64,000 bases of DNA from a virus (taxonomy: Duplodnaviria > Heunggongvirae > Uroviricota > Caudoviricetes): IMG/VR virus record IMGVR_UViG_3300034157_000066, one strand, 5' to 3'. The position numbers and the translations under genes were made by a program. How positions within the stretch are numbered: the stretch's first letter is position 1; every line of letters starts with the position of its first letter. Below are positions 5,349-51,819 of the stretch, piece by piece. The notes beneath the pieces were generated by a model that was not told where the DNA came from, made no database searches, and worked only from the letters and a program-made list of their open reading frames with translations.

Positions 5349-5831
5349 ATGTTTTCACTTATTATCTCGATCATTTCTATTGCTCTTATGGCTGCGTTAT
5401 CTGTTGCAACAATTGCTTATGGATTTTATGCCTATAACAACAATTCTATTTATACAAAAGCAACTTACTTATTAAATACTGCAAACACTATTGCTACTGC
5501 TGCTATTTTTGCGAAAAATGAAGGCGTTTCCATGACTGGCATGAGCGTTGACAATGTGAGTAAACTTAAAGATGCTGCCTATTTAACACACGTTCCTAAC
5601 TATGAAAGTGTTGACTTTGTAATTGATGCGGATGAGTCCTTAGTTAAAATACAAGACTCAGCATTACTTTCACTTGATGTTTGTAAACAGATTATTGCTA
5701 ATTATGACACCCTTAAATTTGACACTGTTTCAACTATTCCTGATGACCCTATTGATGGTCGTAAATATGGTTGTCATGTTGGTTCAAGTGGTGCTGGTTA
5801 TTACACGTTTTATTATCGTATTGATAAATAA
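5349..5831 (+). CDS. pilin-like protein lacking a prepilin leader
   Basis: MFSLIISIISIAL hydrophobic N-terminus, amphipathic continuation, C-terminal Cys pair. Confidence 0.6.
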   Translation: MFSLIISIISIALMAALSVATIAYGFYAYNNNSIYTKATYLLNTANTIATAAIFAKNEGVSMTGMSVDNVSKLKDAAYLTHVPNYESVDFVIDADESLVKIQDSALLSLDVCKQIIANYDTLKFDTVSTIPDDPIDGRKYGCHVGSSGAGYYTFYYRIDK

Positions 5832-5872
5832 TCAAGTCGAAAAAAAAGACTGTTTCAACAGTCTTCTTTTGT

Positions 5873-6283
5873 TTATTCGTCCATCTTGTCTTGGGCCATT
5901 GAAAGGCGTCTTCTAAACTCAAGTGGGTCAGCAATATACTTGATAGGGGCATTGCCATGACCAGTCCCTGATACGATAATTGTTCCAAAATTAAACATTC
6001 GGCCCATCAACCCTTGATTAACTTGAATACTTTCAACTTTTTTCAAGTTTATTTCAACAGTGTCTCTCTGGATAAATCCTTTTTTAGCAATCAATCGTTT
6101 ATTGGTGACAGCGAGTTCTGTACACTTTTTCTGAATGTAGACAACCACTAAAATCACAATACCTACAATAACAGGAATAAGTAGTACACCGAAAAAGATC
6201 TGCCAAAAGAAACCCCAGTTACTTAAACTTGCTTCATATTCAATTTTCTCACCGTCCATCAAGTTGTCACTTACATAACTCAT
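5873..6283 (-). CDS. bacterial PH-domain (bPH_2/YdbS-like) membrane protein
   Basis: TM hairpin then ELAVTNKRLIAKKGFI..INLKKVESIQVNQGLMGRMFNFGTIIV. Confidence 0.8.
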   Translation of the reverse strand: MSYVSDNLMDGEKIEYEASLSNWGFFWQIFFGVLLIPVIVGIVILVVVYIQKKCTELAVTNKRLIAKKGFIQRDTVEINLKKVESIQVNQGLMGRMFNFGTIIVSGTGHGNAPIKYIADPLEFRRRLSMAQDKMDE

Positions 6284-6434
6284 AGCATTCCTCCATTGTT
6301 CCACATAATATATCAAATATTGATATTTTTTCAAGACATATTTTAGATTATTATGTAAGTTTCCATTACAGCTTAAAATGCTTGATTAAAAAGCTAGAAT
6401 TTGATATGATTAATCAACATTTAGAGGACTTTAT

Positions 6435-6707
6435 ATGAAACACATCACTCGCTTTAATTCGGGATTGATTGCAATTATTTTTGCGTTGCTGGCGATTGTC
6501 TTTTTTCAAAGTGTTCGATATTCCGCTCATATGGAATATCATGTATCCAAAGATCTTCCGATTTGGTTTCATATCGGGTTTGTGCTGATGTTAGTTTCGA
6601 TTGTTTTTTCAACTCTATTTTGTTTGGTCGCTTGGGCATATACACCACACAATAATTTGCAGACGAATGCCGAAGAAACAACAGAACTTGACACTGTTGT
6701 TGGATAA
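6435..6707 (+). CDS. two-TM membrane protein
   Basis: AGAGGA SD, two hydrophobic segments. Confidence 0.65.
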   Translation: MKHITRFNSGLIAIIFALLAIVFFQSVRYSAHMEYHVSKDLPIWFHIGFVLMLVSIVFSTLFCLVAWAYTPHNNLQTNAEETTELDTVVG

Positions 6708-6767
6708 ATCACTTTACTAAAAATATGTTTTTTGATAGAATAGATCATAAACTTAAAATGGAAAGAC

Positions 6768-7238
6768 ATGATGAAACGATTTATTTTCTCTAAAATCACA
6801 ATTGTTTTCGTTGTCCACATAATGCTTTTGGTTGGCCTTTACTATGGCACCAAATCAATTGCAATGGTTCATGATCGGGCAGTAGTTCCTGTTTATCTGG
6901 TTGCTGTTAAACCTGATTCTGCAAAAACTTACGATGAAAATGGTTTTTTTATCGGTCAATTTGTTGGTGAATTTGACTATGAAGGTCACCGATTTGAACA
7001 AAATATTTCAATAAGCCAACGATTTGAGTTGATTCAATCGAAAAAGCCTGTTAGACACATGAAACTTCTTTCAGCGGCTGAAATAGGTCTTGATACGCCT
7101 TTCAATGGGCCGGGAACATATCTTTTTTATATACTTTCGATGGCTACATTCTTCTTAATGTTTTTGTTTACTGACCTTCCAAAATTTTACAGGGCTAATC
7201 AAAAAACTGTTTTTGATGAAAATAAAGCTTGCTCGTAA
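6768..7238 (+). CDS. two-TM protein with central soluble domain
   Basis: TM at both ends; topology like 21908 and 59759. Confidence 0.7.
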   Translation: MMKRFIFSKITIVFVVHIMLLVGLYYGTKSIAMVHDRAVVPVYLVAVKPDSAKTYDENGFFIGQFVGEFDYEGHRFEQNISISQRFELIQSKKPVRHMKLLSAAEIGLDTPFNGPGTYLFYILSMATFFLMFLFTDLPKFYRANQKTVFDENKACS

Positions 7239-7302
7239 ATGTGTTTTTTGATATGATAGACACATCAAAACGAGATACCCAATCAAATATCGGAGATACA
7301 CC

Positions 7303-7815
7303 ATGACCAAAGTTACCGCTCTCGAAACCGCAGTAATCGTGAACATCGTTGCTCTCGGCACTTCGTCGGTAAATGTTCAAACTATCACTACCGGCCCAGA
7401 AGCTGTAAAGCTCTCTCAGGTGAATGCAGTTCTCTTGAACCTGAAAGGTAAAGGTCTGGTTTCCCGTGATGGCGAAGGTGTTTCGCTGACTGAGGCTGGG
7501 GTTTCTCTCCATGCTGAACTGTTCCCGGCTCAGAAAGACCTCGATACCCTGCGTCACGAAAGCAACTTGGAACTGAACCGCCCAGCCAAGCCATCTTCAG
7601 CACATGAACTGAAACTCATCAACGAACTGATTGAACTTCGCACCAAGGCTCGACGTTTGGCAGCCGATGTGACTGAACTCGAAGCAGAAGTCATACCGCG
7701 TAGCTTCTCGGAAGTCATTTTCAGCATGTTCCCAAATGCAGTGAATGTCAAAATGGCTTCGATGGAACCTCTTGACCTGATGGGTTATCCAATGACCACC
7801 GTAGTAGTCGAATAA
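7303..7815 (+). CDS. winged-helix DNA-binding protein with coiled-coil C-terminus
   Basis: TALE.AV..NI.A.G...QV.AV..N...KGL..R....VSLT..G shared with 45105. Confidence 0.6.
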   Translation: MTKVTALETAVIVNIVALGTSSVNVQTITTGPEAVKLSQVNAVLLNLKGKGLVSRDGEGVSLTEAGVSLHAELFPAQKDLDTLRHESNLELNRPAKPSSAHELKLINELIELRTKARRLAADVTELEAEVIPRSFSEVIFSMFPNAVNVKMASMEPLDLMGYPMTTVVVE

Positions 7816-7834
7816 GAAAAAAGACTCAACAAGA

Positions 7835-7887
7835 AAGAGGCTTCGGCCTCTTTTCTTGTTGTTATTAGAACTCTTTTTTGATACAAT
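7835..7887 (+). repeat. 53-bp terminator+promoter cassette, copy 1
   Basis: 2 mismatches vs 8197..8249. Confidence 0.95.
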
Positions 7888-7915
7888 GAATAACTTATAT
7901 TAATTAGGAGCATTC

Positions 7916-8194
7916 ATGAAAAAGACATTTATTCTTGCACTTGCACTCGCTCTTTCTGTGTCGGCAGGTTGTAATGCAGAAGAAAAAACTAACACTAACA
8001 CACAAAGTAATATTTCAGGCAAAAAGACTAGATCTGTTACTTGTTATTCAGGAAATGCAGTAACTTACCAACATGACAATGTTATTTTGGTCGCTAGCAT
8101 TACTGATACTGACATTTCTGCAAGAATTCAAGAAGCTGATACTGGCATTAATATGCGGGTTCCTGTTTCGCAATGTTATTTTAAAGATAATTGA
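7916..8194 (+). CDS. small exported/lipoprotein-like protein
   Basis: signal peptide ending SAG-C; bracketed by 53-bp direct repeats. Confidence 0.75.
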   Translation: MKKTFILALALALSVSAGCNAEEKTNTNTQSNISGKKTRSVTCYSGNAVTYQHDNVILVASITDTDISARIQEADTGINMRVPVSQCYFKDN

Positions 8195-8196
8195 GT

Positions 8197-8249
8197 AAGA
8201 GGCTTCGGCCTCTTTTCTTGTTGTTATTATAACTCTTTTTTGATATAAT
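8197..8249 (+). repeat. 53-bp terminator+promoter cassette, copy 2
   Basis: AAGAGGCTTCGGCCTCTTTTCTTGTTGTTATTATAACTCTTTTTTGATATAAT. Confidence 0.95.
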
Positions 8250-8279
8250 TATCATCCACTCAATGAGATAGAGTACATC

Positions 8280-8456
8280 ATGAGCTATTTTGAAGAAGAG
8301 TCCCATCCAGTTACTCGCTTCGCACTGTTCCCACGTCAGATTGCTGGTCAGTGGTTTTGGTTAAAGTCTTTTGTATCAGATCGCGTGCTTGTTCATGGTC
8401 GTATGGATGGCTGCAGCACTGACATCTATGAATATCAGAACCATCGCTTGGTCTAA
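8280..8456 (+). CDS. 58-aa hypothetical protein
   Basis: MSYFEEESHPVTRFALFPRQIAGQWFWLK..; downstream of promoter. Confidence 0.6.
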   Translation: MSYFEEESHPVTRFALFPRQIAGQWFWLKSFVSDRVLVHGRMDGCSTDIYEYQNHRLV

Positions 8457-8520
8457 AACTAGTTGTGAAATGTCGTTTTTAATGATATGATCATCCCATC
8501 AAACATTCCGAGGATTTAAA

Positions 8521-8946
8521 ATGAAAGGTTTTGATTTTCACAAAAAAATGCAATTTCTTGACCTAGTTGTTCGAGATCACTGCAAGTCTATGCATATCTC
8601 TTTGGTTTGCTATGTCATGAACCCAAAGAAAGACAAAAAAAGCATGGCCGAATTTCATAAGCTTTCGGCTCTCAATGATGGTTTTGAGCACAGTCTGAAA
8701 ACTATCTTCCGTAAATATTTCCGTAACCTCGAAGGAAAAACGGGAGTGGATGTTGTTGTCACGAATGAAGAATTGAATGCTTTTACCAAAGCCTATAATC
8801 TTCAAAAAGACTTAATGAAAAAGGAATTTGAAAACTTGACATTGTTGGGTGCATCCGAAGAGGCTCTTGATCGCCTTGAAGTTGATATTGCTGACTGGGC
8901 TTCATTCTATCGTGATTTCATTGAAGAAGTTCAAGATTTCAAGTAA
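8521..8946 (+). CDS. hypothetical protein
   Basis: GAGGA SD, terminator. Confidence 0.7.
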   Translation: MKGFDFHKKMQFLDLVVRDHCKSMHISLVCYVMNPKKDKKSMAEFHKLSALNDGFEHSLKTIFRKYFRNLEGKTGVDVVVTNEELNAFTKAYNLQKDLMKKEFENLTLLGASEEALDRLEVDIADWASFYRDFIEEVQDFK

Positions 8947-9231: not shown

Positions 9232-9281
9232 CAGATAACAAAAAAGCCCTAGCGATAGGGCTTTTTTTATTTCTATTATTT

Positions 9282-9899
9282 TTACATTGGCACTCTACAT
9301 ACAGTCCATATTGACGAGTATCCAGAGTTACTAGTAATAGTTCCTTTTTTATAGGTATAGGTTCCAACAACTTTTTCAGTTGCTGCATATTCGCCACCAC
9401 TATACACTAAGGTACCAGCCCATTTTATATTAAGAAGTGCATATGCTGGAGAACCTGCTGTCCAACTAGAATCAGCAACATTACATTCCTCAACAGTCTT
9501 TGTTCCAATAGCTGTTCGGGTAGTTGTTTGATTTTTTAATGTTTGACTCTCATTTTTTATAGACCCAACATTTCTATATTCATGACTGACATTGTTTTGC
9601 TCTCTTTCCTGTACTGTTCTGGTTTGATCTTGATTACATCCACTACCAGTTTGAGGGAAGGACACTCCCATATTTACTGTGTTTGTGTCTGGTGTCCATG
9701 CTGTACAGCCTGTTGGAGAACCCACATTGACCCATGAACTCAATAATGGATCGGAACTTATCCATTTACTTACAAAACTAATATTTTCGCCATTTATTTG
9801 TTTTTCACCATAAATGACTTGATAAGACGCATTTGCTGTTGATGCTGTCATTAGTCCTAACAAAACTAATGAAAACATCATTTTATTTATTTTTTTCAT
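9282..9899 (-). CDS. secreted protein, tandem paralog A
   Basis: Sec signal; YQVIYGEKQING; W..VG..C..WTPD module; C-terminal YKKG..VCRVP. Confidence 0.85.
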   Translation of the reverse strand: MKKINKMMFSLVLLGLMTASTANASYQVIYGEKQINGENISFVSKWISSDPLLSSWVNVGSPTGCTAWTPDTNTVNMGVSFPQTGSGCNQDQTRTVQEREQNNVSHEYRNVGSIKNESQTLKNQTTTRTAIGTKTVEECNVADSSWTAGSPAYALLNIKWAGTLVYSGGEYAATEKVVGTYTYKKGTITSNSGYSSIWTVCRVPM

Positions 9900-9933
9900 A
9901 TTTTTACTCTTATTTTTTTATTGTTATGTTTTA

Positions 9934-10560
9934 TTATATTGGAACTCTACAAACGCTATGGAATGTGTAATACCCTGCGTTAGCAGTTTGAGCACCCTTG
10001 GTATATTTATATCCATTATATGTGTATTCTGTTAAGTATATATTGCCACTATCAGGGAATACTTTTACGCCTTCCCACATAACATACATAACACCGAATG
10101 ACGGCGTACCATTAACCCAACGTGTGTTCACATCTTTTGAACATTCTTCAATGACCTTTGTTCCATTTGCAGAACGGGTTAGTGTTTGATTTTTTAATGT
10201 TTGATTCTCATTTTTAACAGAACCTAAATTTCTGTACTCACCACTGACATTATTTTTCTCTCTTTCTTGAACTGTTCTTGTTTGATCTTGACTACATCCA
10301 GTAGCTGTTTGATCAAAGGTCACTCCAATATTTTTTGTGCTTACGTCTGGTGTCCATGCTGAACAACCTGTTGGAGAACCTACATTTGTCCAGTTACCTA
10401 ACAATGGATCAGAACTTAACCATTTGCTTACAAAACTAATATTGTCACCATTAATTTGTTTTTCACCATAAACTACAGTGTAGGATGGATCTTTTGCTTG
10501 TGCATTAACTGCCAAACCTAGCAAAGCTAACGATAGTATTTTTATCATTGATTTTTTCAT
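9934..10560 (-). CDS. secreted protein, tandem paralog B (mosaic)
   Basis: N-half like A, C-domain nearly identical to C. Confidence 0.85.
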   Translation of the reverse strand: MKKSMIKILSLALLGLAVNAQAKDPSYTVVYGEKQINGDNISFVSKWLSSDPLLGNWTNVGSPTGCSAWTPDVSTKNIGVTFDQTATGCSQDQTRTVQEREKNNVSGEYRNLGSVKNENQTLKNQTLTRSANGTKVIEECSKDVNTRWVNGTPSFGVMYVMWEGVKVFPDSGNIYLTEYTYNGYKYTKGAQTANAGYYTFHSVCRVPI

Positions 10561-10655
10561 TTAATCTCTCATATCTTATTATTATTGTTATTTATATATT
10601 ATCATGTGTTTTCCTAATTGAAATACTTTAATGCTAATATATTTATTATCATTTA

Positions 10656-11279
10656 TTATATTGGAACTCTACAAACGCTATGGAATGTGTAATAACCATA
10701 GTTAGCAGTTAATGCACCTTTAGTGTATTTATATCCATTATAGGTATATTCTGTTAAGTTAATATTACCAATATCAGGGAATACTTTTACACCTTCCCAC
10801 ATGATATACATCATACTCATTGATGGTGTGCCATTAACCCAACGTGTGTTCATATCTTTTGAACATTCATCCACAACCTTTGTTCCATTTGCCGAACGGG
10901 TTATTGTCTGATTAGTGAGTGTTTGTGATTCATTTATTGGATTGCCAATAGGTCGAAATGCTAACGTATAATTGTTTTGTTCTCTGTTCTGGACTGTTCT
11001 CGATTGTTCTTGTTCGCAGTCACTGGCTGTTTGGTCAAAAGTTATTCCAATTGCCATTGTGCTCGGGTCAGGTGTCCAACCAGAACAACCAGATGGAGAG
11101 CCTACATCAGCCCATGCTGATATTTCTGGTGATGCTTTTATCCACTTGCCTTTTTTGACAAACGTGATGTTGTCTCCATTGATTTGTTTCTCTCCATATA
11201 TAGCAGTATATGAAGCATTTGCTGTTAATGCAGTGCTCGCTAAAAGGGCACTTGTTAACATAAGTATTGTCTTTTTCAT
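10656..11279 (-). CDS. secreted protein, tandem paralog C
   Basis: same architecture; ends GYYTFHSVCRVPI like B. Confidence 0.85.
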   Translation of the reverse strand: MKKTILMLTSALLASTALTANASYTAIYGEKQINGDNITFVKKGKWIKASPEISAWADVGSPSGCSGWTPDPSTMAIGITFDQTASDCEQEQSRTVQNREQNNYTLAFRPIGNPINESQTLTNQTITRSANGTKVVDECSKDMNTRWVNGTPSMSMMYIMWEGVKVFPDIGNINLTEYTYNGYKYTKGALTANYGYYTFHSVCRVPI

Positions 11280-11571
11280 ACTAATATTATTATTATTATC
11301 TTACTACAAATTTAACACATTTTAGATAAAATCAAATATAAAAACGCACAATTATAGCTTAATATATAAGGTTTTATATTAAAAGTACTTATTATTGTTT
11401 GATGTTGTTTTTTATAAAGTTTTTTATTTAATGAACATTAAAATCACAAAAAACAAATCATCAACACCTCTAAAAATATTTATCAAATTTTGATATATTT
11501 TATAAAAAGCTTCCATTTTAGAGGTTTTCTTGCTATAATTTGGTTACTTTAGTGAGGTTGGAGCCTTCATC

Positions 11572-11676
11572 ATGTGCGACAAATGCAAAGTCTGCAAAAA
11601 AGACAATAAAGATGACACCAAACAGGTTGCTGAAAAGCCTTCTGGTGATGTGTCTGTTATCGTTAAGTCGAAATAA
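11572..11676 (+). CDS. 34-aa peptide with CxxCxxC N-terminus
   Basis: MCDKCKVCKKDNKDD..; GGAG SD; promoter upstream. Confidence 0.4.
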   Translation: MCDKCKVCKKDNKDDTKQVAEKPSGDVSVIVKSK

Positions 11677-11687
11677 GGAACTATTCC

Positions 11688-11879
11688 ATGAACCAGTTAA
11701 TGTCAGAAGAACCTTCGATTGATTACGCAATGGATCGAATGTCTATTGATGAAGCGATTGCTTACCTTCAGTCCCTGAAAGATCGGTTCATTGAACATCA
11801 TTGTGTACTCTCGTATGACTGTGTTGATGAGATTACTGGTGCATCGGCACTCAATCTTTATTCGGCTGACAAAAAGTAA
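11688..11879 (+). CDS. hypothetical protein
   Basis: AAGGA SD, terminator. Confidence 0.65.
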   Translation: MNQLMSEEPSIDYAMDRMSIDEAIAYLQSLKDRFIEHHCVLSYDCVDEITGASALNLYSADKK

Positions 11880-11976
11880 TACTGTAACAAAATAAATGAA
11901 CCGCTTTGGCGGTTTTTTGTTGCATGGCCGTTCAATATTGTTTATAATTGTTGTAATTAATCAGAGAGATATGTAA

Positions 11977-12180
11977 ATGATCGCGTGTAGTTGTCCAAAA
12001 TGTAGCACCTATGGTAATGCCTCTTATTGCATTAATGACATCATTGATGAAGGTAAGTCAGAATATGAATCCAGTCGTAAAAAGTCGGTTTTCTGGATGC
12101 GGTTTTCGCTTTGTGCTGCCGGAATATTTTGTTCTATTCCTGTTGTTATTCGTATTTTAGATTATTTTGTTAAGTCGTAA
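11977..12180 (+). CDS. small Cys-rich protein with C-terminal TM
   Basis: CxCxxC plus hydrophobic C-terminus. Confidence 0.6.
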   Translation: MIACSCPKCSTYGNASYCINDIIDEGKSEYESSRKKSVFWMRFSLCAAGIFCSIPVVIRILDYFVKS

Positions 12181-12225
12181 GTAGTTAATTTTGAATACAA
12201 TAAAGGAACCTTGTGGTTCCTTTTT

Positions 12226-12927
12226 TTAATGTATGTTTATCATGGCAATCAGTAACTTATCTTCTTCTGTCAAATCTTCCAATGTCTTTATTTCATTTTC
12301 TTTAAGGTAGTTAAGATATTGACGCTTGCTGTATTTAACGCCACCCATATTTATATGATCTTTTTCTACTATAATACCCTTTTTTTCAAGTGATGTGAGT
12401 TCAAATTCATTGCCATATGTATAACTGTATTCAAAATATAAATCAGTACAACTGTCGAATAAATACAATGATTTAAATTCATTATCGTTTATATATGACT
12501 TTTTAATGAGTGGCATATATATTTTTCTGTAACTGTTAAGTTTAAAAATAAATCCTAATCCCAAAATAAGGATAACCGTTATATTCAAAACATGCCCAAC
12601 TATACTATGATTCTCATAGTTTGATGCATAAAACATCATTGAGTAGATCAAACCTAGTATTATTAGATATTTAAACCCTTCTGGTAAAAATATGGTTCTT
12701 TTTTTATAGTCACGCTTCGAATAGTTTGTTTTATAGTAACTTAGTATGCCGACCATCACAAACATGGCTATGATGTCTAATGTAATGTAAGTTGCCAATA
12801 CTTTTTCTATTGGTGTATTAAAGGTGTAAATAGCCACAATAGACAACATCAGATAAAATGATGCTACTATTATTTTATTGCTATATATACTTTCTTTTAA
12901 TGTTTTAAAGTAATTTTTCATTTTCAT
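12226..12927 (-). CDS. multi-TM membrane protein
   Basis: about 4 TM segments then soluble domain; AT-rich; shares bidirectional terminator. Confidence 0.75.
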   Translation of the reverse strand: MKMKNYFKTLKESIYSNKIIVASFYLMLSIVAIYTFNTPIEKVLATYITLDIIAMFVMVGILSYYKTNYSKRDYKKRTIFLPEGFKYLIILGLIYSMMFYASNYENHSIVGHVLNITVILILGLGFIFKLNSYRKIYMPLIKKSYINDNEFKSLYLFDSCTDLYFEYSYTYGNEFELTSLEKKGIIVEKDHINMGGVKYSKRQYLNYLKENEIKTLEDLTEEDKLLIAMINIH

Positions 12928-15476: not shown

Positions 15477-16067
15477 ATGATTTTAAATAAGACTAAACAA
15501 ACAGGCACTATTGGATTTGATGTAATAATGGTAATCGGCATTATGTTGTTGATTATTGCTGTTACATTGACACTTTATGGATCTGCCAGAGATAAAAGAA
15601 ATGAGCAAGAAGTTAATTATTTAGGGTTGCTCTATCATTTAAGTTTTTCTAGTGGGAATGGATTAATTGTTTATAATGAAAAAGAAGTGTCGGACATTCA
15701 AAAAACTGTTATTAAATCATTAGATTGCACCAAAAATTATTGTACTCCAATACAAACGGCTCTTTCAATTGGATCTTTTATTTCCATTAATTACACTAAT
15801 GGTGTTGCACATGATATTAAAATTTATTCAACTAATGTAAGTTCTATTTTCTTCAAGAATAACAAAAGCTCTTATTTTTATAGTGAGAAATTTCAGCTTG
15901 AAAAAACCACACTTGATGAACACCCTGATTATGCCTATCCATTAAGTATCCAGCCAAAGTTAACTCATGAATATTACTTAGCCACTGATCTAACCAATCC
16001 AGTAAGTGAAGATGTATGTATTCCATCTGGTTTGGATTGTTATGATGTTTTACATTATAGGCTTTAA
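15477..16067 (+). CDS. minor pilin-like protein
   Basis: KTKQTG|TIGFD then hydrophobic helix; paralog of 16788. Confidence 0.6.
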   Translation: MILNKTKQTGTIGFDVIMVIGIMLLIIAVTLTLYGSARDKRNEQEVNYLGLLYHLSFSSGNGLIVYNEKEVSDIQKTVIKSLDCTKNYCTPIQTALSIGSFISINYTNGVAHDIKIYSTNVSSIFFKNNKSSYFYSEKFQLEKTTLDEHPDYAYPLSIQPKLTHEYYLATDLTNPVSEDVCIPSGLDCYDVLHYRL

Positions 16068-16787: not shown

Positions 16788-17402
16788 ATGAGTGCTAATA
16801 AAATCATTATTATAAAAAGCGAATTTATAATAATTACATCTATTTTAGTTATGATTATTATCTTGTCTTTTTGTACTTTCTATGAGTATAAGCGAAAAAC
16901 AGTTGTGGAGAATGTAAATTATTTAGCGTTCATCTATCATTTAGGCTTATCTAATAATACTGATGGCGTATATATCATTAACTATGATCAAGCATTAAAC
17001 ATTCAAAAAGATGTCATTAAAAATCTAAATTGTTCAAGAGATAAAGACTACTGTTTTACATTTGATGATAAATTGGTTTCAGGTGCTTTTATTGAAATCA
17101 GTTACATTAATAATAAAGTTGATTATCTTAAAATATATTCTAAAAAGATTGGTTTTATTTTTAATAACAATGTCGCAATGGAACCTTATTCAAAAGGATT
17201 ATTTCCGCCTGAGTCGATTACGCAAAGTGAAAGCTTTCGCGTTGGAAGACCTAACACTTTGGTTATTGCTGATATGATGAACCATGTGAAGCATGAATAT
17301 TACAATGAATACAATTTGGGCAAACGGATTACAGAAGAAGAGTGTATGCTGGCTAAAAATCAGTGTTTTGATGTTCTTTTTTACGAAAAAAACCCTGCAT
17401 GA
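16788..17402 (+). CDS. pilin-like protein, paralog of 15477 with degenerate leader
   Basis: shared VNYL..(L/I)YHL, IQK.VIK.L.C, HEYY, C(Y/F)DVL.Y. Confidence 0.65.
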   Translation: MSANKIIIIKSEFIIITSILVMIIILSFCTFYEYKRKTVVENVNYLAFIYHLGLSNNTDGVYIINYDQALNIQKDVIKNLNCSRDKDYCFTFDDKLVSGAFIEISYINNKVDYLKIYSKKIGFIFNNNVAMEPYSKGLFPPESITQSESFRVGRPNTLVIADMMNHVKHEYYNEYNLGKRITEEECMLAKNQCFDVLFYEKNPA

Positions 17403-17475
17403 CACTCATGAAGACGTTGACGAAAAAAGTCTTTTTTGCTATAATACATTCACTAAAAACCAATAGAGATCCAAC

Positions 17476-17892
17476 ATGACTGCGATTATCGTTAGCGACA
17501 AAATCAAAGTTCCAGAAGGGCAAGAAAACAATCCTTGCGTGGGTTGTGGTGCTTGCTGTGCCTACTTTCGTGCATCCTTTCACTGGATGGAATGCGAATC
17601 GGCTGGCGGCACCGTCCCTGATGACACCGTTGTTCAGGTCAGTCCACACCATGTCGCCATGAAGGGTACTGATAGCTCCACATCCCCTTACTGCGTTAAT
17701 CTGACTGGAACCATCGGTGTCGATGCGTTTTGCGGTGGTTACGCCACTCGTTCTTCTACTTGCCGTGATGGTTTTCCAGCTTCCTATGAAGATGGTGAAA
17801 AGAATGAGCGGTGTGATAAGGCTCGGGCAAAACACGGCCTTCGTGAGTTGACACCAGAAGATTGGGCTTGGAAAAATGCAATCACGGCTTAA
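17476..17892 (+). CDS. ykgJ: YkgJ-family cysteine-cluster protein
   Basis: NPCVGCGACCAYFRASFHW.E..AGGT..RSSTCR..C.KARAKHGL. Confidence 0.85.
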   Translation: MTAIIVSDKIKVPEGQENNPCVGCGACCAYFRASFHWMECESAGGTVPDDTVVQVSPHHVAMKGTDSSTSPYCVNLTGTIGVDAFCGGYATRSSTCRDGFPASYEDGEKNERCDKARAKHGLRELTPEDWAWKNAITA

Positions 17893-17986
17893 TAATTTCA
17901 AATAAATCATGGGGCTTCGGCCCCTTTTTTGTTGTTTTTGATTGGTTACAGTGGTATAATGAGTTATCAAAACGAGGATAAGCCCG

Positions 17987-18355
17987 ATGAAAACTTTGAA
18001 TGCCGAAACCGTCAAAATCCAGTTGAACGCTTGTGGTGTTAAGGTTAATGATATTTCGAGTGATTTGAAGAAAATCGTTGAAGCCACCGTTTCATCCAGC
18101 CAAGAATCAGCATTCATTGAAGCGAAGGTTAATGCCATTCGACTCGATTTGGCAGCAAAAGACTCCGATTTTAACCCAAAAGACATTGTTTTTTCCTTCT
18201 CTCCATTGCCCCGTTCGGTGATCGTTTACAAAAATCAGCCGTTCATTGTCGATTGCTCTCACAAAAATGGATTGTTCTTGATTTCGATGTGTGGCGAAGA
18301 GTATGAAAGTGCTCCTGTTGCAGAATACCCAGTTATTGGCACAATTACCATTTAA
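17987..18355 (+). CDS. hypothetical protein
   Basis: GAGGA SD. Confidence 0.7.
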   Translation: MKTLNAETVKIQLNACGVKVNDISSDLKKIVEATVSSSQESAFIEAKVNAIRLDLAAKDSDFNPKDIVFSFSPLPRSVIVYKNQPFIVDCSHKNGLFLISMCGEEYESAPVAEYPVIGTITI

Positions 18356-18860: not shown

Positions 18861-19535
18861 ATGAATACAAAAAAAATAAATAAGATGTCTGGTGGTGTTT
18901 CTTTGCTTGAACCACTTATGGTGATTGCTCTCTTTGCAATGATGATTATTATGGCAATAATTTACTACAGTGCTTCAACTAAAAGGTTTAATCCAGATTT
19001 TATGGATATTGTAAGTTTTGCTAATAATTTAAACTCGTTACAATCAGATAAAGAAGTCATTACTTTAAAGTATAATGAAATAACGCCTTTTCAAAAAGAT
19101 TTGTTTAGTAAAATAGATTGTGTTAATTCCATATGTAAGCCTATTGACTTACAAAAATATCCGCCTAACACTTATTTAAGAATTTATTATAAAGATTCCA
19201 AGTTTGATTCTTTTTATCTGTACACAAAAAACAACAGTTCTATTTTTAACTTTAATACAACAGTTTATAATGATTGGGTTTCAAACATCTCTTTTGATCG
19301 ATTTAAAGAAGAAGAAATTACTTTGATTAAACGAGAGAAAAAGAGATACCCAGATATGAATCCTTTTATTACTTATTTATCAAATACATTTGATAATGTC
19401 TCTATTTATAATATCTCTGATAATGATCAATCTGTTGTTAAAGATGATAATTGTCCAGAAGCAAACTGCACCAGTGTGTTAGCGTATAAAAACAATCCAA
19501 TCGTACAACTTGCAGACAACAAAAAAGCCCTTTGA
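18861..19535 (+). CDS. type IV pilin-like protein
   Basis: KKINKMSGG|VSLLEPLMVIALF (G-1, E+5); Cys pairs. Confidence 0.7.
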   Translation: MNTKKINKMSGGVSLLEPLMVIALFAMMIIMAIIYYSASTKRFNPDFMDIVSFANNLNSLQSDKEVITLKYNEITPFQKDLFSKIDCVNSICKPIDLQKYPPNTYLRIYYKDSKFDSFYLYTKNNSSIFNFNTTVYNDWVSNISFDRFKEEEITLIKREKKRYPDMNPFITYLSNTFDNVSIYNISDNDQSVVKDDNCPEANCTSVLAYKNNPIVQLADNKKAL

Positions 19536-29785: not shown

Positions 29786-29791
29786 AACCAC

Positions 29792-29876
29792 GCCCGGTTG
29801 GTGAAATTGGTAGACACGAGGGACTTAAAATCCCTTTCCGTAAGGAGTGCCGGTTCGAGTCCGGCACCGGGCACCA
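29792..29876 (+). tRNA. tRNA-Leu (anticodon TAA)
   Basis: GCCCGGT/ACCGGGC acceptor, TGGTAGA D-loop, AGGGA-CTTAAAA-TCCCT anticodon arm, long variable arm, GTTCGAG T-loop, encoded CCA. Confidence 0.95.
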
Positions 29877-40919: not shown

Positions 40920-42527
40920 ATGATAGTCTTCAAAAATAAAAAACAAAAAGGTTTTACCCTTTTTGAAATGCTACTTTCTCTATTTATAATAATGTCTCTT
41001 CTCACAGGGTTTTTTTATTGGTACATCCAACTGCAACGAGATCAAAAAGCGACTATATTCGGAAAAGATATAGTATCCATAATTATAGCTTTTGACAAAC
41101 GTATCCACGTTGACGGCTGGGATATTGACAACTTTAAAAATGGTACTGAATGGAGTGGTTCAGCCGCTATTATTGAGATGATCAATACTGAATTCATAGC
41201 AAAAAATGCCAGTTGTGCAACAGCAAAAAGCTGGGCTCCAGTTCTCGAAAAAGAGAATTCAACAAAACTAATCCCTTGTGATTTTTGGTCCATAATCCCT
41301 TATGATTTTATTGTAAGAGCAAAAATAACGTCAGATGCAGAAGGTTTTATACAAAACTTTAAAGTTATTTTCCAGCCTAAAAGTGACATCATTTTTTTAG
41401 AAAACTTTCGATACTTCAATAAAGCAAAGATGGCAGCCAATGCTAACAACTCATTAAATATAACGGGTGGTCATCAATTCTATTTTGCTGCACTCTCCGA
41501 TCCAGCTACAAAAATAACCAATGTTGCATGTCTTGCTTTAAAAGCAAACTGTACCTTAGTCGCCAGCTACGACCGTGAGGGTGGAAATGAGTATTTAAGA
41601 GTTGATGGAACAAACTCAATGTTAGGCTCAGCGGTGACCTTTAAAGAATCAAAAGGTCATGATCGACTAAGTTGCATCAAATGGGAAAAAAATGCAGTCA
41701 GTAGCATTTGGGAATCGAAGACTGTAGATTGCGGTATCGGCATACACAATAAAACTAGCAACCCAGTAGCGGTAGATATAGCCGCCAGCTCAACTACAAG
41801 CAAGCGAGTAATGCTCGACAGGCTATGCCCTGTATTCACCCACTCAGCAGACACTATTATCGAGACAGGTCAAACAGCACCTTGTGGACTACTTCCGCAA
41901 GATGATGGTGGAACAGAGGTTGCCTATCAGGTTATAGATACGTTATCCGCAGGAAAAGGATTAATTAAGACGCTCTATACGGACACTATATTTTCTGACG
42001 AAATAAACACTAATTACATGAACGTCAAAAAAGACTTGGCTGTTCTAGGTGATTCTAAAATGGACGGAACCTTAACTGTCAAAGGTGCAGGACAATTCGA
42101 TTCAAACGTAAATGTCAAAGGTGCAGGGCAATTCGATTCAAACGTAACTGTCAAAGGTAGAGGGCAATTCGACAATAATATCAATTTAACCAAAGTCGAA
42201 GTAGAAGGCAATTCTTGCTCCCCTAATGGTTTAGTATCAAGAGATGCAAAAGGAGCTGTATTATCTTGCCAAGCTGGTTTATGGGCTAAGCAATTTGACG
42301 GGTTCGACTTTGTTGAATACTATGTAACCTCAAACAATCCCGCTGCAGGCGTTTCAAATTTGGGTAAACACAAATTTTGCTCAATTTCTGGTATTGGTGG
42401 TGAGCGTCCACATGGTTATGTTTACCGAACTACCTATACCCCAGATGCTGCTGGTAAGTATTCCTTTCAAGCATCATGGTATGGTTATGAGTTGACAATG
42501 GATCTTCGTGTAACTTGCATAGACTAA
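40920..42527 (+). CDS. PilV-like type IV pilus tip adhesin 1
   Basis: KKQKG|FTLFE class III signal; G.SC..NGL.SRD..G.VLSCQ.G.W shufflon-type constant end; 80-aa tip with LGKHKFC. Confidence 0.8.
   Translation: MIVFKNKKQKGFTLFEMLLSLFIIMSLLTGFFYWYIQLQRDQKATIFGKDIVSIIIAFDKRIHVDGWDIDNFKNGTEWSGSAAIIEMINTEFIAKNASCATAKSWAPVLEKENSTKLIPCDFWSIIPYDFIVRAKITSDAEGFIQNFKVIFQPKSDIIFLENFRYFNKAKMAANANNSLNITGGHQFYFAALSDPATKITNVACLALKANCTLVASYDREGGNEYLRVDGTNSMLGSAVTFKESKGHDRLSCIKWEKNAVSSIWESKTVDCGIGIHNKTSNPVAVDIAASSTTSKRVMLDRLCPVFTHSADTIIETGQTAPCGLLPQDDGGTEVAYQVIDTLSAGKGLIKTLYTDTIFSDEINTNYMNVKKDLAVLGDSKMDGTLTVKGAGQFDSNVNVKGAGQFDSNVTVKGRGQFDNNINLTKVEVEGNSCSPNGLVSRDAKGAVLSCQAGLWAKQFDGFDFVEYYVTSNNPAAGVSNLGKHKFCSISGIGGERPHGYVYRTTYTPDAAGKYSFQASWYGYELTMDLRVTCID
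42075..42173 (+). repeat. 36-bp in-frame tandem repeat, about 2.7 units
   Basis: (T/N)VKG(A/R)GQFD(S/N)NV units. Confidence 0.9.
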
Positions 42528-42629
42528 TATTAATCATTTTGAACAGAAATCGCAGCCTAGGCTGCTTTTTTGTTTTTTGTAAATGTTTTGACATTAAAAC
42601 TCATTTTTGGTATAATTATTTCATCAAAA

Positions 42630-42651
42630 CGAGATAATATAGGAACTCTCG
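42630..42651 (+). promoter_or_regulatory. leader hairpin CGAGA-N12-TCTCG with SD in loop (also 43084..43105, 45081..45102)
   Basis: three near-identical leaders ending TCTCGACATGGCTAAG. Confidence 0.65.
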
Positions 42652-42653
42652 AC

Positions 42654-42977
42654 ATGGCTAAGAAAGCAAAATTCACTTTCAAACTCCATCCAAAAGCAAA
42701 AGGTTTGGCTGTTGTTGGAAATTCCCGTCAGGACTGTGATGTTAAATTTAACACCCTTCGCATTGGTGTTATTCACGCTCCTAACTGGTCATCGCAAAGC
42801 AAAGAGTACTCAGTATCTTTCGCTGTCAAACACACCGATGAAGAGAATCCTAATCGTAAATGGAAATGGGTTCGCCTTTCCAAGACCACCCCGACTCTTG
42901 ATGAAATGAAGGAATGGTTGAATAAAGTCGCTGATCAGGTTGTTGAAAAATACGAATTGCACTCGTTTACCGACTAA
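42654..42977 (+). CDS. hypothetical protein, tandem paralog of 43108
   Basis: MAKKA.FTFKLHPK..W.WVRL..T..LD.MK.WL. Confidence 0.8.
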   Translation: MAKKAKFTFKLHPKAKGLAVVGNSRQDCDVKFNTLRIGVIHAPNWSSQSKEYSVSFAVKHTDEENPNRKWKWVRLSKTTPTLDEMKEWLNKVADQVVEKYELHSFTD

Positions 42978-43107
42978 TCAATAAACTCACTTATATAAAG
43001 CCCCGACCTTGGGGCTTTTTGTTGTTTTGTTTATAAAGCCGTTGACTAAAAAACTCATTTTTGATATACTTATCCCATCAAAACGAGACAACATAGGAAA
43101 TCTCGAC

Positions 43108-43431
43108 ATGGCTAAGAAAGCAAACTTTACCTTCAAACTGCACCCAAAAGAAACCGGGTTGGGGGCTGTTGGTCATCCATTTCAAAGCTGTGACATCAAG
43201 CTGAATAAACAAACAGTTGGTACCATCCATGCTCCTACTTGGATGACAAAAGGGAATGAGTTTTCGGTTTCATTTACTGTTAAGCACAAAGACCCAGCTA
43301 TCACCTACTGTGACTGGAAATGGGTTCGCCTGAAACATACGACTGCATCGCTTGATGATATGAAAGCATGGTTGAAAGCTAACATCGACACAATTACTAC
43401 CAAGTTAGAGCTTCATGCTCAGGAAGACTAA
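43108..43431 (+). CDS. hypothetical protein, tandem paralog of 42654
   Basis: see 42654. Confidence 0.8.
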   Translation: MAKKANFTFKLHPKETGLGAVGHPFQSCDIKLNKQTVGTIHAPTWMTKGNEFSVSFTVKHKDPAITYCDWKWVRLKHTTASLDDMKAWLKANIDTITTKLELHAQED

Positions 43432-43838: not shown

Positions 43839-44004
43839 ATTGTTATTTTTATAATTGTGTGTATTCATTGTAGCACAATAATATAAAAGTCAAAAAAAAA
43901 TTCAATTTATTAATACTTGATTGATACTTTTAAAATGAATATTCGTTGACATAAAAACTCATTTTTGATATAATTACACCATCAAATCAAATGAGACTCA
44001 GACC

Positions 44005-45017: not shown

Positions 45018-45104
45018 TAAATATCAGGTAGAAAAAACTTGTTTTTGTTTTCTTAACGCGATATAATAGACACATCAAAACGAGACAACACAGGAAATCT
45101 CGAC

Positions 45105-45368
45105 ATGGCTAAGCTCAACATCACCGCACTTGAACAAGCAGTTATGGCTAACATCAAGGCTTTCGGCGTCGGTCAAACCATTCCTCAAAATGTCTTGGCA
45201 CAAGGCCAATCAACCATCAAGCCTACTCAGGTTGGTGCAGTGGTCAATAACATGGTCAGCAAAGGTCTGTTGACTCGTCAGAAAGACCTGTTCGGCACTA
45301 ACGTTAGCCTGACCCGTTCCGGTAAAATCCAAACAACCAAACTGTTCAAACAAGCCATTGCCGCTTAA
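45105..45368 (+). CDS. winged-helix DNA-binding protein
   Basis: related to N-terminus of 7303; QVGAVVNNMVSKGLLTR..VSLTRSG. Confidence 0.65.
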   Translation: MAKLNITALEQAVMANIKAFGVGQTIPQNVLAQGQSTIKPTQVGAVVNNMVSKGLLTRQKDLFGTNVSLTRSGKIQTTKLFKQAIAA

Positions 45369-45481
45369 TTGACCAGTGAATAAAGACCCGCTTCGGCGGG
45401 TTTTTTGCTTTTATTGATCGACAAAAATCTAGTTTAATGGTAAAATACATTCATTAAATCACCACCGTCAGGTATCTCGAC

Positions 45482-45943
45482 ATGGCTAAGCCAATCTCAT
45501 CAGTTGATCTTGAGTTTCTTGTTGAAGACTCAAAAATCCAGAAAGCTCTGGTTCCTGCTAGTTTGGTCAAATTGAACCCTATGGAAGCTGATGTGTTTGC
45601 TGGCTGGCTTGATGAACTGGTGGGTTATATTCAAATCCCTGATGAATCTCATGGCCGTCTGTTCAAACACTGTGAACTCTCATCTATCGGCTTTGTTGCC
45701 AAAGATGGTTTGAGCTATGTGCCCGTGTGTGTTTTTACCTCTGACACGCCAGTCTTTGATTCGGAAATTTTCAGCGGCAAATCGTTTGATGGATTGCCTT
45801 GGGTGGTTCTCTATCATGGTCGAGATAACTGCAGCTATGGCCGTCGCTTTGCTTCCGAGTTTGACGCCAATCGTTTTTTGAAGAACGGGTTCGTTAATGG
45901 TTTCTTCAATGTTCATGGAAAACTTGAATTCTATAATTCTTGA
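45482..45943 (+). CDS. hypothetical protein
   Basis: HGRDNCSYGRRF; shares TCTCGACATGGCTAAG start. Confidence 0.75.
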   Translation: MAKPISSVDLEFLVEDSKIQKALVPASLVKLNPMEADVFAGWLDELVGYIQIPDESHGRLFKHCELSSIGFVAKDGLSYVPVCVFTSDTPVFDSEIFSGKSFDGLPWVVLYHGRDNCSYGRRFASEFDANRFLKNGFVNGFFNVHGKLEFYNS

Positions 45944-48272: not shown

Positions 48273-48290
48273 TATTCGAGGATTTTTCTG

Positions 48291-48638: not shown

Positions 48639-48757
48639 TATTCACAACCTTCTAAATAGCACAACCCAGTGTTGGGTTTTTTATGAGTATCAAAAAATAG
48701 ATTGTTTCATTCTCTTGTGTATGTTATTATCCACGAATTAGAAAAGAGGATTTAAAG

Positions 48758-49315: not shown

Positions 49316-49443
49316 ACACCTAAGCACTGTTCAGACCAAGAGCCTCTTCGGAGGCTTTTTCATTTATTTTAAAATAAACCTTGCTCATAAATCTGTTTTT
49401 CATTATAATAACACCATCGAAACGAAATACAGGAAGCGACCCC

Positions 49444-49758
49444 ATGAGCCAGACCATTACTCAAAACACTCTGTTCACTCGTCAGGATTACATGGCTGAC
49501 AAATGCACCCATGAACAATACTACGCTCAGTTCATCAATGATGCGGGTATCGAGATGGTTAAAAAGAGCCAAGCTTACAAAACCCTGATCAAAAAAGGCT
49601 CCAAAGATGTTTCGATGGTCGAGGTTGGCGTGTGGGATCTCATCGGCACCGCTGGTGAATCCGTAAACCTGATGAAAACTCTGGGTGATAATTGGTCGTT
49701 GGCTGGGGCTGTCTGCATCAATAAAGCTATTGCTCGCCAATTGCTTGAAGCTGCATAA
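49444..49758 (+). CDS. hypothetical protein, paralog of 56250
   Basis: R..Y...KCT...YYAQFI..LGD.WSLA..V.INK.IA. Confidence 0.8.
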   Translation: MSQTITQNTLFTRQDYMADKCTHEQYYAQFINDAGIEMVKKSQAYKTLIKKGSKDVSMVEVGVWDLIGTAGESVNLMKTLGDNWSLAGAVCINKAIARQLLEAA

Positions 49759-49859
49759 CAAGTTCACGAACCATAAAACTAAGGGCTTCGGCCCTTTTTT
49801 GTTGCCTTAAATATCGTAGTGCGTTATAATGGGCCATCACAAACGAAATGGTGAACATC

Positions 49860-50021
49860 ATGAGTTTTGTCATCACAGAGTTCAGCAAAGCCCCTAAACA
49901 CTATTCCATCTCTCAAAAAATCGAAAATGCTGCAGGGTTTACTTGGAAAGAAGTCGCCACTGTAAAACAACGTTCGACGGCTTTCTTTTTAATCTCACTC
50001 ATTGAGAAAATGTCCCGATAG
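49860..50021 (+). CDS. 53-aa hypothetical protein
   Basis: between promoter and terminator. Confidence 0.55.
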   Translation: MSFVITEFSKAPKHYSISQKIENAAGFTWKEVATVKQRSTAFFLISLIEKMSR

Positions 50022-50154
50022 TTCAACAATAAAACAGATTAAAGGGCTTCGGCCCTTTGTTTTATATTATTACCATAATTTATAAAACGTTAAAACTTCC
50101 CTTTTATTCTATTCATTTCATGTTATCATTATAATAATAATAACAATAAAAAAC

Positions 50155-51819
50155 ATGAAAAAAGCCATAAAAAACTCTCAAAAAGGGTTAACCCTTGTCG
50201 AAACACTTCTATCTTTATCAATAGTAATTGCCATTGTCATTAGTTTTCTATATTGGTACTTGGAACAAAAAAGAGAACAGCAAGCAACTATTTTTGGAAA
50301 GGAAGTTGTCTCTATTATATCTGCATTTGACAATCGCGTTCATATAGATGGTTTGGATATTGATAATTTCAAAAATGGTCATGAATGGAATGGTTCTTCT
50401 GCTTTTCTTAATATGCTGAATACTGAATTTATTGCTAAGAACTCTTCTTGTGGTCAGCCCAATAATTGGGTGCCAGTCTTAGAAAAAGAAAAATCTATAA
50501 AATTAGTTCCTTGTGATTTTTGGACGAAAGTACCATATCAATTCATTATAAATTCAAAAATAATACCCGATGATGATGGGTTTATAAAAAAGTTCATCGT
50601 CAGCTTCCAATCGAAAAATGAAGCATCTTTTTTAGAAAATTTCCGATTCTATAATCTTGCAAAAATGACTGCAAATGCTAATAACTCGTTAAATATAACA
50701 GGCAGTCATCAATTCTATTTTGCTGATATTACTGATCCCACTATTAATATATCTAATTCAAAATGTATTAGCTTAAAAGCTGATTGTATATTAGTCGCTG
50801 CTTATGATCGTAATGGTGGAAATGAATATTTAAGAGTTGATGGAACTAACTCAATTATAGGATCGGCGGTTACGTTTAAAGATACAAAAACAACTGATCG
50901 ACTTCAATGTATTAAATGGGAAAAGAATGTAAGTGGTAATTTATGGGAATCTAAATCAGTTGATTGTGGTATTGGTATACATAAAGAAACAAATTCTCCA
51001 GTTGCTGTTGATATCGCAATCAGTTCATCTACACATGAACGTATAATGTTAGATAGATTATGCCCAGTCTTCAAAAATACACCAGATTCTTTAATTGAAA
51101 CCATTCAAAAAACACCTTGTGGTCTATTCCCGCAAGATGACAATGGAATAGAAGTAGCTTATCAGGTTATAGATACTGTATCAGCAGGCAAAGGTTTAAT
51201 TAAAACACTCTACACTAGCACTGTATTTTCGGATGAAGTTAATACCAACTATATGAATGTGAAAAAAGATTTAGCCGTTTTAGGAAATTCTGTTATGGAT
51301 GGCACTTTAACAGTAAAGGGCACTGGTCAATTTGACAATAATATTAATTTAACTAAAGTTGAAATTGCTGGTAAAGCTTGTGCTACTGATGGCTTATTAT
51401 CCAGAGACGTTAAAGGATCAATCTTAACTTGCACATCAAAATTATGGAGATCCGCAGAAGAAACAAAAATTCAAAGTGGTCGTAATTATACTCTGACTTG
51501 TGGTTCTTATTGGATGAATGCAGGCCAAAAAATTTGTGGTTCAATGCCTTATGTTGACATTGTTTTCAAGGATGAAATGCCCACAATACCCCATATTATT
51601 GCAAGTGCAGAATCTCTTTTTCCTTATACACCATGTGCGTCTGGGGCTATGGATGCTATTGACCATGTAATCAGCAATGTGACTACAAAAGGATTTCGCC
51701 TGTATGGTGGTGCTAGTCCAATTTCAGCATCTTCTGATTCTTGTGGTGATCCAGCAGTACACGGAAGAGCCGTTAGTTTATTTTCATGGATGGCAGTGGC
51801 TAAAACGGCTTCGTTTTAG
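50155..51819 (+). CDS. PilV-like type IV pilus tip adhesin 2
   Basis: NSQKG|LTLVE; body paralogous to 40920; tip IQSG..I.F....P.I..NVTTKGF..SWMA (H-type-lectin/tail-fibre-like). Confidence 0.8.
   Translation: MKKAIKNSQKGLTLVETLLSLSIVIAIVISFLYWYLEQKREQQATIFGKEVVSIISAFDNRVHIDGLDIDNFKNGHEWNGSSAFLNMLNTEFIAKNSSCGQPNNWVPVLEKEKSIKLVPCDFWTKVPYQFIINSKIIPDDDGFIKKFIVSFQSKNEASFLENFRFYNLAKMTANANNSLNITGSHQFYFADITDPTINISNSKCISLKADCILVAAYDRNGGNEYLRVDGTNSIIGSAVTFKDTKTTDRLQCIKWEKNVSGNLWESKSVDCGIGIHKETNSPVAVDIAISSSTHERIMLDRLCPVFKNTPDSLIETIQKTPCGLFPQDDNGIEVAYQVIDTVSAGKGLIKTLYTSTVFSDEVNTNYMNVKKDLAVLGNSVMDGTLTVKGTGQFDNNINLTKVEIAGKACATDGLLSRDVKGSILTCTSKLWRSAEETKIQSGRNYTLTCGSYWMNAGQKICGSMPYVDIVFKDEMPTIPHIIASAESLFPYTPCASGAMDAIDHVISNVTTKGFRLYGGASPISASSDSCGDPAVHGRAVSLFSWMAVAKTASF

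Follow-up and report, generated by a model that had tools for sequence, protein, structure and literature searches.

The DNA analysed here, referred to as the window, is a stretch of 64,000 nucleotides from the IMG/VR virus record IMGVR_UViG_3300034157_000066, assigned to the Caudoviricetes, and it contains six scattered genes whose products resemble type IV pilins. The window has a guanine-plus-cytosine (GC) content of 38% and holds about 119 tightly packed open reading frames (ORFs), which are mostly small and lie on the plus strand. An initial annotation, drawn up from the sequence alone, had placed pilin-like genes at 5349, 15477, 16788, 18861, 40920 and 50155, and all six exist as ORFs at those positions. 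It had also described them as more AT-rich than their neighbours, which is correct for five of the six but not for 40920: measured against the 119 window ORFs (mean 40.1% GC, standard deviation 4.5), the three small paralogues at 18861, 16788 and 15477 have GC contents of 27.7, 29.0 and 29.9%, three of the four lowest values, while 5349, 50155 and 40920 have 33.7, 33.9 and 38.7%. Terminator-like hairpins flank each of the six genes, in agreement with their description as stand-alone cassettes. Since terminators are enriched about 3-fold across the whole element and most genes here are bracketed by hairpins, this arrangement is a general feature and not one special to the six genes.

Pilin-like gene families of the window

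Prepilin-type starts were sought by a six-frame motif scan of the 269 ORFs of at least 60 residues, requiring a basic leader, a Gly, four residues, a Glu or Asp and then an uncharged hydrophobic stretch. Exactly four ORFs were retrieved, 15477, 18861, 40920 and 50155, compared with none among reversed proteins and a mean of 0.12 among shuffled proteins, and the pattern is therefore real and beyond chance. The class III-type N-termini proposed earlier were all recovered in this way, namely KG/FTLFE in 40920, KG/LTLVE in 50155, GG/VSLLE in 18861 and TG/TIGFD in 15477. The residue at position +5 is Glu in 40920, 50155 and 18861 (in the last if cleavage follows the second Gly) and Asp in 15477. 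The leader-Gly feature is absent from 5349, which has no leader, and from 16788, which has no Gly; neither has Glu or Asp at +5. The leader-bearing proteins are predicted substrates of a prepilin peptidase.

The two large genes, both on the plus strand, encode putative PilV-like tip adhesins of 535 residues (40920-42527, P0005) and 554 residues (50155-51819, P0006). Each combines its leader with a constant body of about 440 residues, a conserved Cys-Pro-x-Gly ... Cys-x-x-Gly-x-Trp junction and a C-terminal tip. The two bodies are 58% identical, after which the C-termini diverge completely (alignment A1), giving a tip A in 40920 and an unrelated tip B in 50155. The Pfam N_methyl profile matches 40920 with E 4e-6 (26.5 bits against a cut-off of 21.2) and 50155 with E 0.014, below the curated cut-off. 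Shufflon_N (PF04917) matches 40920 with E 1e-8 (35.5 bits, cut-off 27.5), over profile positions 280-324 only, and 50155 with E 2.4e-5 (24.4 bits, under the same curated cut-off of 27.5). Among the database homologues at 60-73% identity, those at 73% matching 40920, are Pseudomonas aeruginosa and P. putida proteins that bear the NCBI names 'shufflon system plasmid conjugative transfer pilus tip adhesin PilV' or 'FimT family'. Tip A (residues 450-535 of 40920) has 70-74% identity with segments of P. aeruginosa megaplasmids that carry no annotation. Tip B and the corresponding part of the P. putida protein P0012 agree at 89-100%, whereas the bodies are only 55-83% identical (sliding identity). 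With tip B so much more alike than the bodies, the tips appear to be exchanged as cassettes, and the sequences identify the PilV-like genes as carriers of a shared constant body with unrelated, horizontally exchanged tips.

A shufflon was considered as the source of this variation and rejected: no inverted-repeat (sfx-like) set and no silent tip segments were found downstream of 40920 or 50155, and no recombinase family was found among 105 window ORFs, so that the tip variation resides in separate genes. Three tandem 36-nt (12-residue) repeats lie ahead of the junction in 40920 (42068-42172) and one in 50155, while the proteins P0034, P0038 and P0045 carry much longer repeat stalks at this place, and stalk length therefore differs among paralogues. 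As for distribution, the body had no full-length match on any PLSDB plasmid, tblastn of the PilV-like protein against phages returned nothing, and the family profile retrieved from IMG/VR a single Pseudomonas provirus record, with the gene at its edge next to a Rep gene. A solitary PilV-like gene is also present in a small island of three Pseudomonas genomes (L003 1033-12492, L005 1-7973 and L006 1469-5762), where the other genes are Replicase/PriCT, exported-family, SSB-like and restriction-modification genes; one of these islands includes a gene for a large serine recombinase, and one is placed at the border of a predicted provirus. Such an island may be a small mobilisable element bearing its own adhesin.

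The small paralogue family comprises three plus-strand genes. Two encode putative minor pilins: 15477-16067 (P0002, 196 residues), with a basic leader, a Gly and TIGFD, and 18861-19535 (P0004, 224 residues), with a leader, GG and VSLLE. The third, 16788-17402 (P0003, 204 residues from the ATG at 16788), is a divergent paralogue that lacks the Gly and carries the sub-family motif KSEF. Paralogy is supported by BLASTP (15477 against 18861, E 8e-11; 15477 against 16776/16788, E 5e-25), and 16788 is 32% identical to 15477. The gene at 16788 had been called a degenerate paralogue, and the paralogy stands but the decay does not, because its orthologue in a related contig (L013) is 88% identical, which indicates that the gene has been kept; the database representative P0108 begins at the ATG at 16788. 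The family is rare, with only 16 representatives among 1.8 billion proteins. Its diverged members keep the basic leader (9-11 residues), the Gly and then a Glu or Asp at the fifth, sometimes the sixth, residue, while the sub-family that includes 16788 has lost the Gly and some 18861 orthologues have an Asp directly before VSLLE. The orthologues of 18861 are 53-96% identical and syntenic with a NUDIX gene. For the small paralogues no Pfam, NCBIfam or PDB sequence match was obtained, and 18861 found nothing in plasmids or in phages, the latter by tblastn.

Structural modelling offers a further view of this family. The AlphaFold2 (AF2) model of 18861 has a predicted local distance difference test (pLDDT) score of 69.6, and when it was compared with 48,161 PDB chains by VIA, the top two matches were CofB (Z 4.3, 127 residues aligned) and TcpB (Z 4.2, 125 aligned), both type IVb minor pilins. 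Among AFDB clusters the best match was a prepilin-type protein (E 6e-4). The small paralogues are on this basis likely, but no more than likely, to be minor pilins, since the Z scores are low and the Foldseek comparison with the PDB yielded no match.

The remaining gene, 5349-5831 on the plus strand (P0001), encodes a 160-residue protein that begins MFSLII and would have a pilin fold without a leader or Glu5. The initial annotation had listed it as a leaderless MFSLI pilin-like ORF, and several observations agree with this. Its ATG has a good ribosome-binding site (GGAG, 8 nt upstream), and its first 25 or so residues are invariant in homologues that are only about 30% identical elsewhere, a hallmark of a filament-forming N-terminal helix. 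In the AF2 model (pLDDT 70.9) a small sheet follows a helix of about 55 residues, and type IV pilins, pseudopilins and PilM account for all of its ten best VIA matches (Z 4.0-5.9), led by CofA (5.9), TcpA (5.5), EpsG (5.2), PilA1 (5.1) and PulG (5.1). Scans of IMG/VR with the 5349 and small-paralogue families found nothing, and a PDB sequence search with profiles of all three families (PilV-like, small and leaderless) gave nothing significant.

The pilus machine on relatives of the window

The window itself contains no pilus machinery, as had been stated earlier: T2SSE, T2SSF, Secretin and Peptidase_A24 matched none of the 105 ORFs at Pfam sensitivity. At the DNA level, megablast of 10 kb of the window against plasmids and phages found no match, nor did distant blastn of 4 kb against complete Escherichia coli genomes, so that no plasmid, phage or E. 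coli megaplasmid on deposit is closely related to the window. Relatives were recognised at the protein level. A 1.85-Mb Joint Genome Institute (JGI) contig (L013) is collinear with positions 6.4-28.5 kb of the window at 60-99% protein identity, and a 677,834-bp JGI contig is collinear, at its own positions 91-112 kb (L021), with 4.9-29.5 kb of the window at 33-90% amino-acid identity and contains three members of the small family there.

About 320 kb away on this 677,834-bp contig, at 422-442 kb (L019), lies a pilus machine. Its genes are ordered as a 144-residue protein, a lipoprotein secretin, proteins of 514 and 145 residues, an MFSLI pilin, an 85-residue protein, a second leaderless pilin-like gene, a 596-residue protein, a T2SSE ATPase and a T2SSF platform protein, with Pfam E-values of 5e-12 for Secretin (PF00263), 2.5e-94 for T2SSE and 4.9e-21 for T2SSF. 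On the other side of the cluster are another MFSLI pilin, DsbB and a PilV-like gene, making three leaderless pilin-like genes in all. The same machine cluster was found in L010 (a 1.86-Mb contig), L014 (498 kb), L017 (234 kb, 58% GC) and the Pseudomonas megaplasmid pMPPla107, and a PilV-like gene lies 4 kb from the machine in both L010 and L019. The machine clusters of L010, L019, L017 and pMPPla107 are flanked by homologues of 5349, and their pilins share with it one subunit type, M-F/Y-S/A-L-I-I followed by an invariant hydrophobic helix, without leader or Glu5. From these sequences 5349 would encode a further, dispersed member of the family that supplies filament subunits to a megaplasmid-type pilus machine.

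Contigs of the L010 type are treated as one kind of giant element because the same cluster sits on a contig with a window-like region. The 1.86-Mb contig was also considered as an ordinary bacterial chromosome, on account of MutS, RNase R, SppA and DsbB; this reading, although possible, was rejected. In the high-GC machine of L017 the secretin (7085-8875) has a C-terminal DotD-like domain, and the large protein ahead of the ATPase (11263-12762) is an RCC1-repeat beta-propeller, whereas its 596-residue equivalent in L019 has no family match. Near the pilus cluster of a 175-kb relative contig, a stand-alone 137-residue ORF (L004 16644-17057) corresponds to the C-terminal domain alone of the RNA polymerase alpha subunit.

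The leaderless pilin family also matches megaplasmids of 0.8-1.0 Mb in Variovorax and Pseudomonas. Among them pMPPla107 (NZ_CP031226.1) is a complete replicon of 971,889 bp, typed MPF_I; R64, which has a thin pilus with PilV, is of the same mating type. Its machine cluster lies at 10-21 kb next to parAB, in the order seen in the relatives (small protein, secretin, two unknowns, leaderless pilins, a large unknown, GspE and GspF). The family profile finds three leaderless pilins, the third at 41 kb; a second, classical type IVb set lies at 113-116 kb, the only Peptidase_A24 at 520 kb, and a 497-residue PilV-like gene with the same junction at 697 kb. The small paralogue family has an N-terminal match only. 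With its pilus parts so scattered, pMPPla107 indicates that dispersed pilus genes with no machinery nearby are the normal layout in such elements. For a comparable group, the pMEGA low-GC conjugative megaplasmids of Enterobacteriaceae, a 2025 preprint reports sizes up to 1.58 Mb, over 100 tRNAs, Dot/Icm genes and a secretin, besides two BfpA-like pilins that are expressed and, in each genome, 7-16 'possible shufflon/pilin proteins' (10.1101/2025.09.30.679422). No description of a megaplasmid-type type IV filament with leaderless pilins was found in the literature searched.

A proposed pilus of the element and competing explanations

The reading that we consider probable is that the six genes supply a type IVb-like pilus belonging to the element itself with subunits and with alternative tip adhesins, that the machine of this pilus is encoded far away on a giant plasmid-like replicon, and that a fixed multi-gene adhesin repertoire takes the place of a shufflon. 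Under this reading the window would be part of a very large, low-GC, plasmid-like extrachromosomal element, with the motor and channel of its pilus encoded hundreds of kilobases from the six substrate genes. The protein at 5349 would be an extra variant of the leaderless major subunit, the products of 15477, 16788 and 18861 would be minor pilins that prime or cap the fibre, and those of 40920 and 50155 would be alternative PilV-type tip adhesins, the interchangeable C-terminal tips setting which surface or recipient cell is bound. A prepilin peptidase supplied from elsewhere on the element or by the host would process the proteins that have a leader. Where R64 varies one PilV gene by a shufflon, this element would use several complete, separately promoted PilV genes. 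By extension from the relatives, the same machine would reside in the window's own replicon, the six products would be incorporated into its fibre, and the fibre would act in mating or adhesion.

Several observations weigh against this reading. No prepilin peptidase was found within 10 kb of the machine in the relatives, and a machine for the window's replicon is deduced from sequences related at 33-90% identity. In both large proteins Shufflon_N matches the junction only (the last 45 profile positions), and the body of about 400 residues fits no profile and no solved structure, a profile search of the PDB included. The fold matches are weak (Z 4.2-5.9), under the safe level of the tool, and Foldseek of the 18861 and 5349 models against the PDB gave no match at E <= 0.001. 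Pseudomonas chromosomes can moreover carry a PilV-like gene of this family on its own; one draft genome of this kind, that of P. entomophila 6C6, gave two T2SSE ATPases only and no match to the leaderless-pilin profile. In addition, the window has many early genes of phage type (thymidine kinase, Tpt1, Srd-like, endonuclease VII, HNH and endolysin-type), and a phage or hybrid nature is possible. The earlier label of a phage-like early region holds in so far as early-type genes are present, but capsid, terminase, portal and tail genes were found among none of the 105 ORFs with Pfam and PHROGs at the thresholds used (a T4_baseplate match, E 0.004, was sub-threshold), and the relatives resemble giant plasmid-like elements. 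The element may be a plasmid, a phage or a hybrid of the two, for the window has T4-type early genes and no virion genes.

The initial annotation had proposed either that the element builds a pilus from machinery encoded elsewhere or that it feeds its proteins into the pilus of the host. The relatives support the former, through the machine and the window-like region on one 677,834-bp contig and the dispersal seen in pMPPla107. The same annotation had held that a complete pil operon on a non-phage plasmid would make these genes ordinary cargo; such a cluster is found in the relatives, to which the search was confined. That the element instead inserts its pilins and adhesins into a host type IV pilus, re-tipping or poisoning it and so blocking pilus-dependent phages or competing conjugative elements, seems to us quite unlikely. 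A precedent has been published: F10-like prophages of P. aeruginosa encode a FimU that takes the place of the host's own minor pilin and stops phages that bind the pilus tip, and genes for PilA-like proteins are found in lytic phages (PMC12952977); the lack of machinery and the phage-type early genes in the window are also compatible with it. It is retained chiefly on account of PilV-like genes that stand alone in a genome without a match to the leaderless-pilin profile, as in strain 6C6. Solitary genes of this kind also lie in Pseudomonas islands that lack a pil cluster and have Rep and restriction-modification genes nearby. Nothing, however, supports such feeding or jamming for this element: relatives of the window region share a replicon with a complete dedicated machine that has subunits of the 5349 family, a PilV-like gene lies close to that machine in L010 and L019, a 535-residue adhesin with exchangeable tips suits binding more than blocking, and no host or competitor phage is known. 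The prophage FimU is likewise a pilus tip component encoded by a mobile element remote from the pilus operon, but it is a close homologue of the host minor pilin and acts in the host type IVa pilus (PMC12952977), whereas the families of the window proteins are tied to a separate, element-encoded machine.

Two further explanations concern the small proteins and what the machine carries. The machine may export proteins in the manner of the toxin-coregulated pilus (TCP) or colonisation factor antigen III (CFA/III), its minor pilins and PilV-like tip complex loading for release the 'rod-and-head' proteins encoded by three tandem genes of an exported family (9282-11279, minus strand) and their paralogues. 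TcpB and CofB are minor pilins that dock TcpF and CofJ, and it is these that the small paralogues resemble. The ORFs adjoining the solitary PilV-like gene in the three Pseudomonas islands are homologues of 9282-11279 (E 1e-20, 1.7e-14 and 5e-19), and the family is expanded on pMPPla107, with 29 matches. Because the exported family is linked to PilV-like genes elsewhere, the products of 9282-11279 are possible pilus-dependent exoproteins, candidates suggested by gene neighbourhood. As a full account a secretion platform is nevertheless improbable, for the linkage is genetic only and the idea is compatible with an adhesive or mating role, which makes it more a complement than an alternative. It is also unlikely that 15477, 16788 and 18861 are not pilins at all but single-pass, N-terminally anchored periplasmic proteins whose pilin-like start is a signal-anchor coincidence. 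The empty Pfam, NCBIfam and PDB sequence searches would fit this, as would the modest model (pLDDT 69.6, best Z 4.3, Foldseek against the PDB empty), the frequent Asp or the acidic residue at +6, the missing Gly in 16788 and the Asp before VSLLE in some 18861 orthologues. Against it, the pattern of leader, Gly, four residues, acidic residue and hydrophobic stretch recurs in otherwise diverged members, the top two of 48,161 chains are both type IVb minor pilins, and the small genes occur alongside other pilus genes in every relative examined.

Beyond the proposed pilus of the element, a bolder idea, which we hold as doubtful, is that these genes belong to a distinct class of filament carried by megabase-scale elements, with a major subunit that needs neither peptidase nor Glu5, and with minor pilins and hard-wired PilV-type adhesins that keep classical leaders. 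The adhesin genes and the linked exported protein would then also travel alone into chromosomes without a machine, as portable host-range cartridges using another's pilus.

Neighbouring genes, known systems and significance

Other features of the window were noted alongside the pilin-like genes. Immediately 3' of 40920 are two tandem paralogous genes (42570-43431) of about 135-140 residues, with 77% nucleotide identity over 172 nt. A promoter-plus-leader module of 43-54 nt is common to three to four genes at least, whose ORFs all start ATGGCTAAG; the intervals noted in this connection are 42586-42662, 43040-43116, 43944-43986, 45033-45113 and 45474-45491. The module looks like a reusable expression cassette placed before small genes that are either paralogous or unrelated. 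At 29792-29876 there is a single tRNA-Leu(UAA) gene. In the 363-residue protein encoded at 57583-58674, a segment of residues 211-311 or so resembles the Srd anti-sigma factor or sigma-70 decoy found in T4-like phages of Acinetobacter and Pseudomonas; on pMPPla107 the protein had no match. The 277-residue minus-strand ORF at 17353-18186 is probably spurious because relatives conserve the overlapping plus-strand genes 17476-17892 (CxxCxxCC, 96% identical) and 17987-18355 (99% identical).

Among the closest known systems is the R64 (IncI1) thin pilus, which shares a prepilin leader on a large tip adhesin, the Cys junction (Shufflon_N 280-324) and alternative C-terminal tips. It also shares the combination of lipoprotein secretin, T2SSE ATPase and T2SSF platform with the machine of the relatives, and an MPF_I-type conjugative replicon with pMPPla107. 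Unlike R64, the window has separate full-length genes in place of a shufflon and a body of about 400 residues that does not match Shufflon_N, the element's major subunits lack a leader and Glu5, and the genes are spread over hundreds of kilobases. The giant tRNA-bearing replicons pMPPla107 and pMEGA are similar in other ways, pMPPla107 in its dispersed extra pilin, peptidase and PilV-like genes and its expanded exported family, and pMEGA in its low GC and its many shufflon- or pilin-like proteins (10.1101/2025.09.30.679422). The window also has T4-type early genes; of these the Srd-like gene, the one sought in such plasmids, had no match on pMPPla107. Structurally, the globular part of the 18861 model is best matched by TcpB of Vibrio cholerae and CofB of enterotoxigenic E. 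coli, and the 5349 model by the major pilins TcpA and CofA, while the genetic link of the window's pilus genes to an exported family parallels the TcpF and CofJ exoproteins. These comparisons show no sequence similarity and Z scores of only 4-6, and the small paralogues have none of the extra C-terminal domains of TcpB and CofB.

If the pilus reading is correct, giant low-GC elements would set their mating or adhesion range by a fixed library of complete tip-adhesin genes and not by a DNA-inversion switch. Their fibre would consist of subunits that do without the cleaved leader and without Glu5, two rules which to our knowledge are taken as universal for type IV pilins. The tempting account of a phage sabotaging the pilus of its host is corrected here as unsupported, and three uncatalogued protein families, the PilV-like body, the small minor-pilin-like family and the leaderless pilins, become available for annotation. 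The pilus reading, if correct, would also provide a concrete experimental handle on how megabase-scale plasmids of the pMPPla107 and pMEGA types find their recipients.

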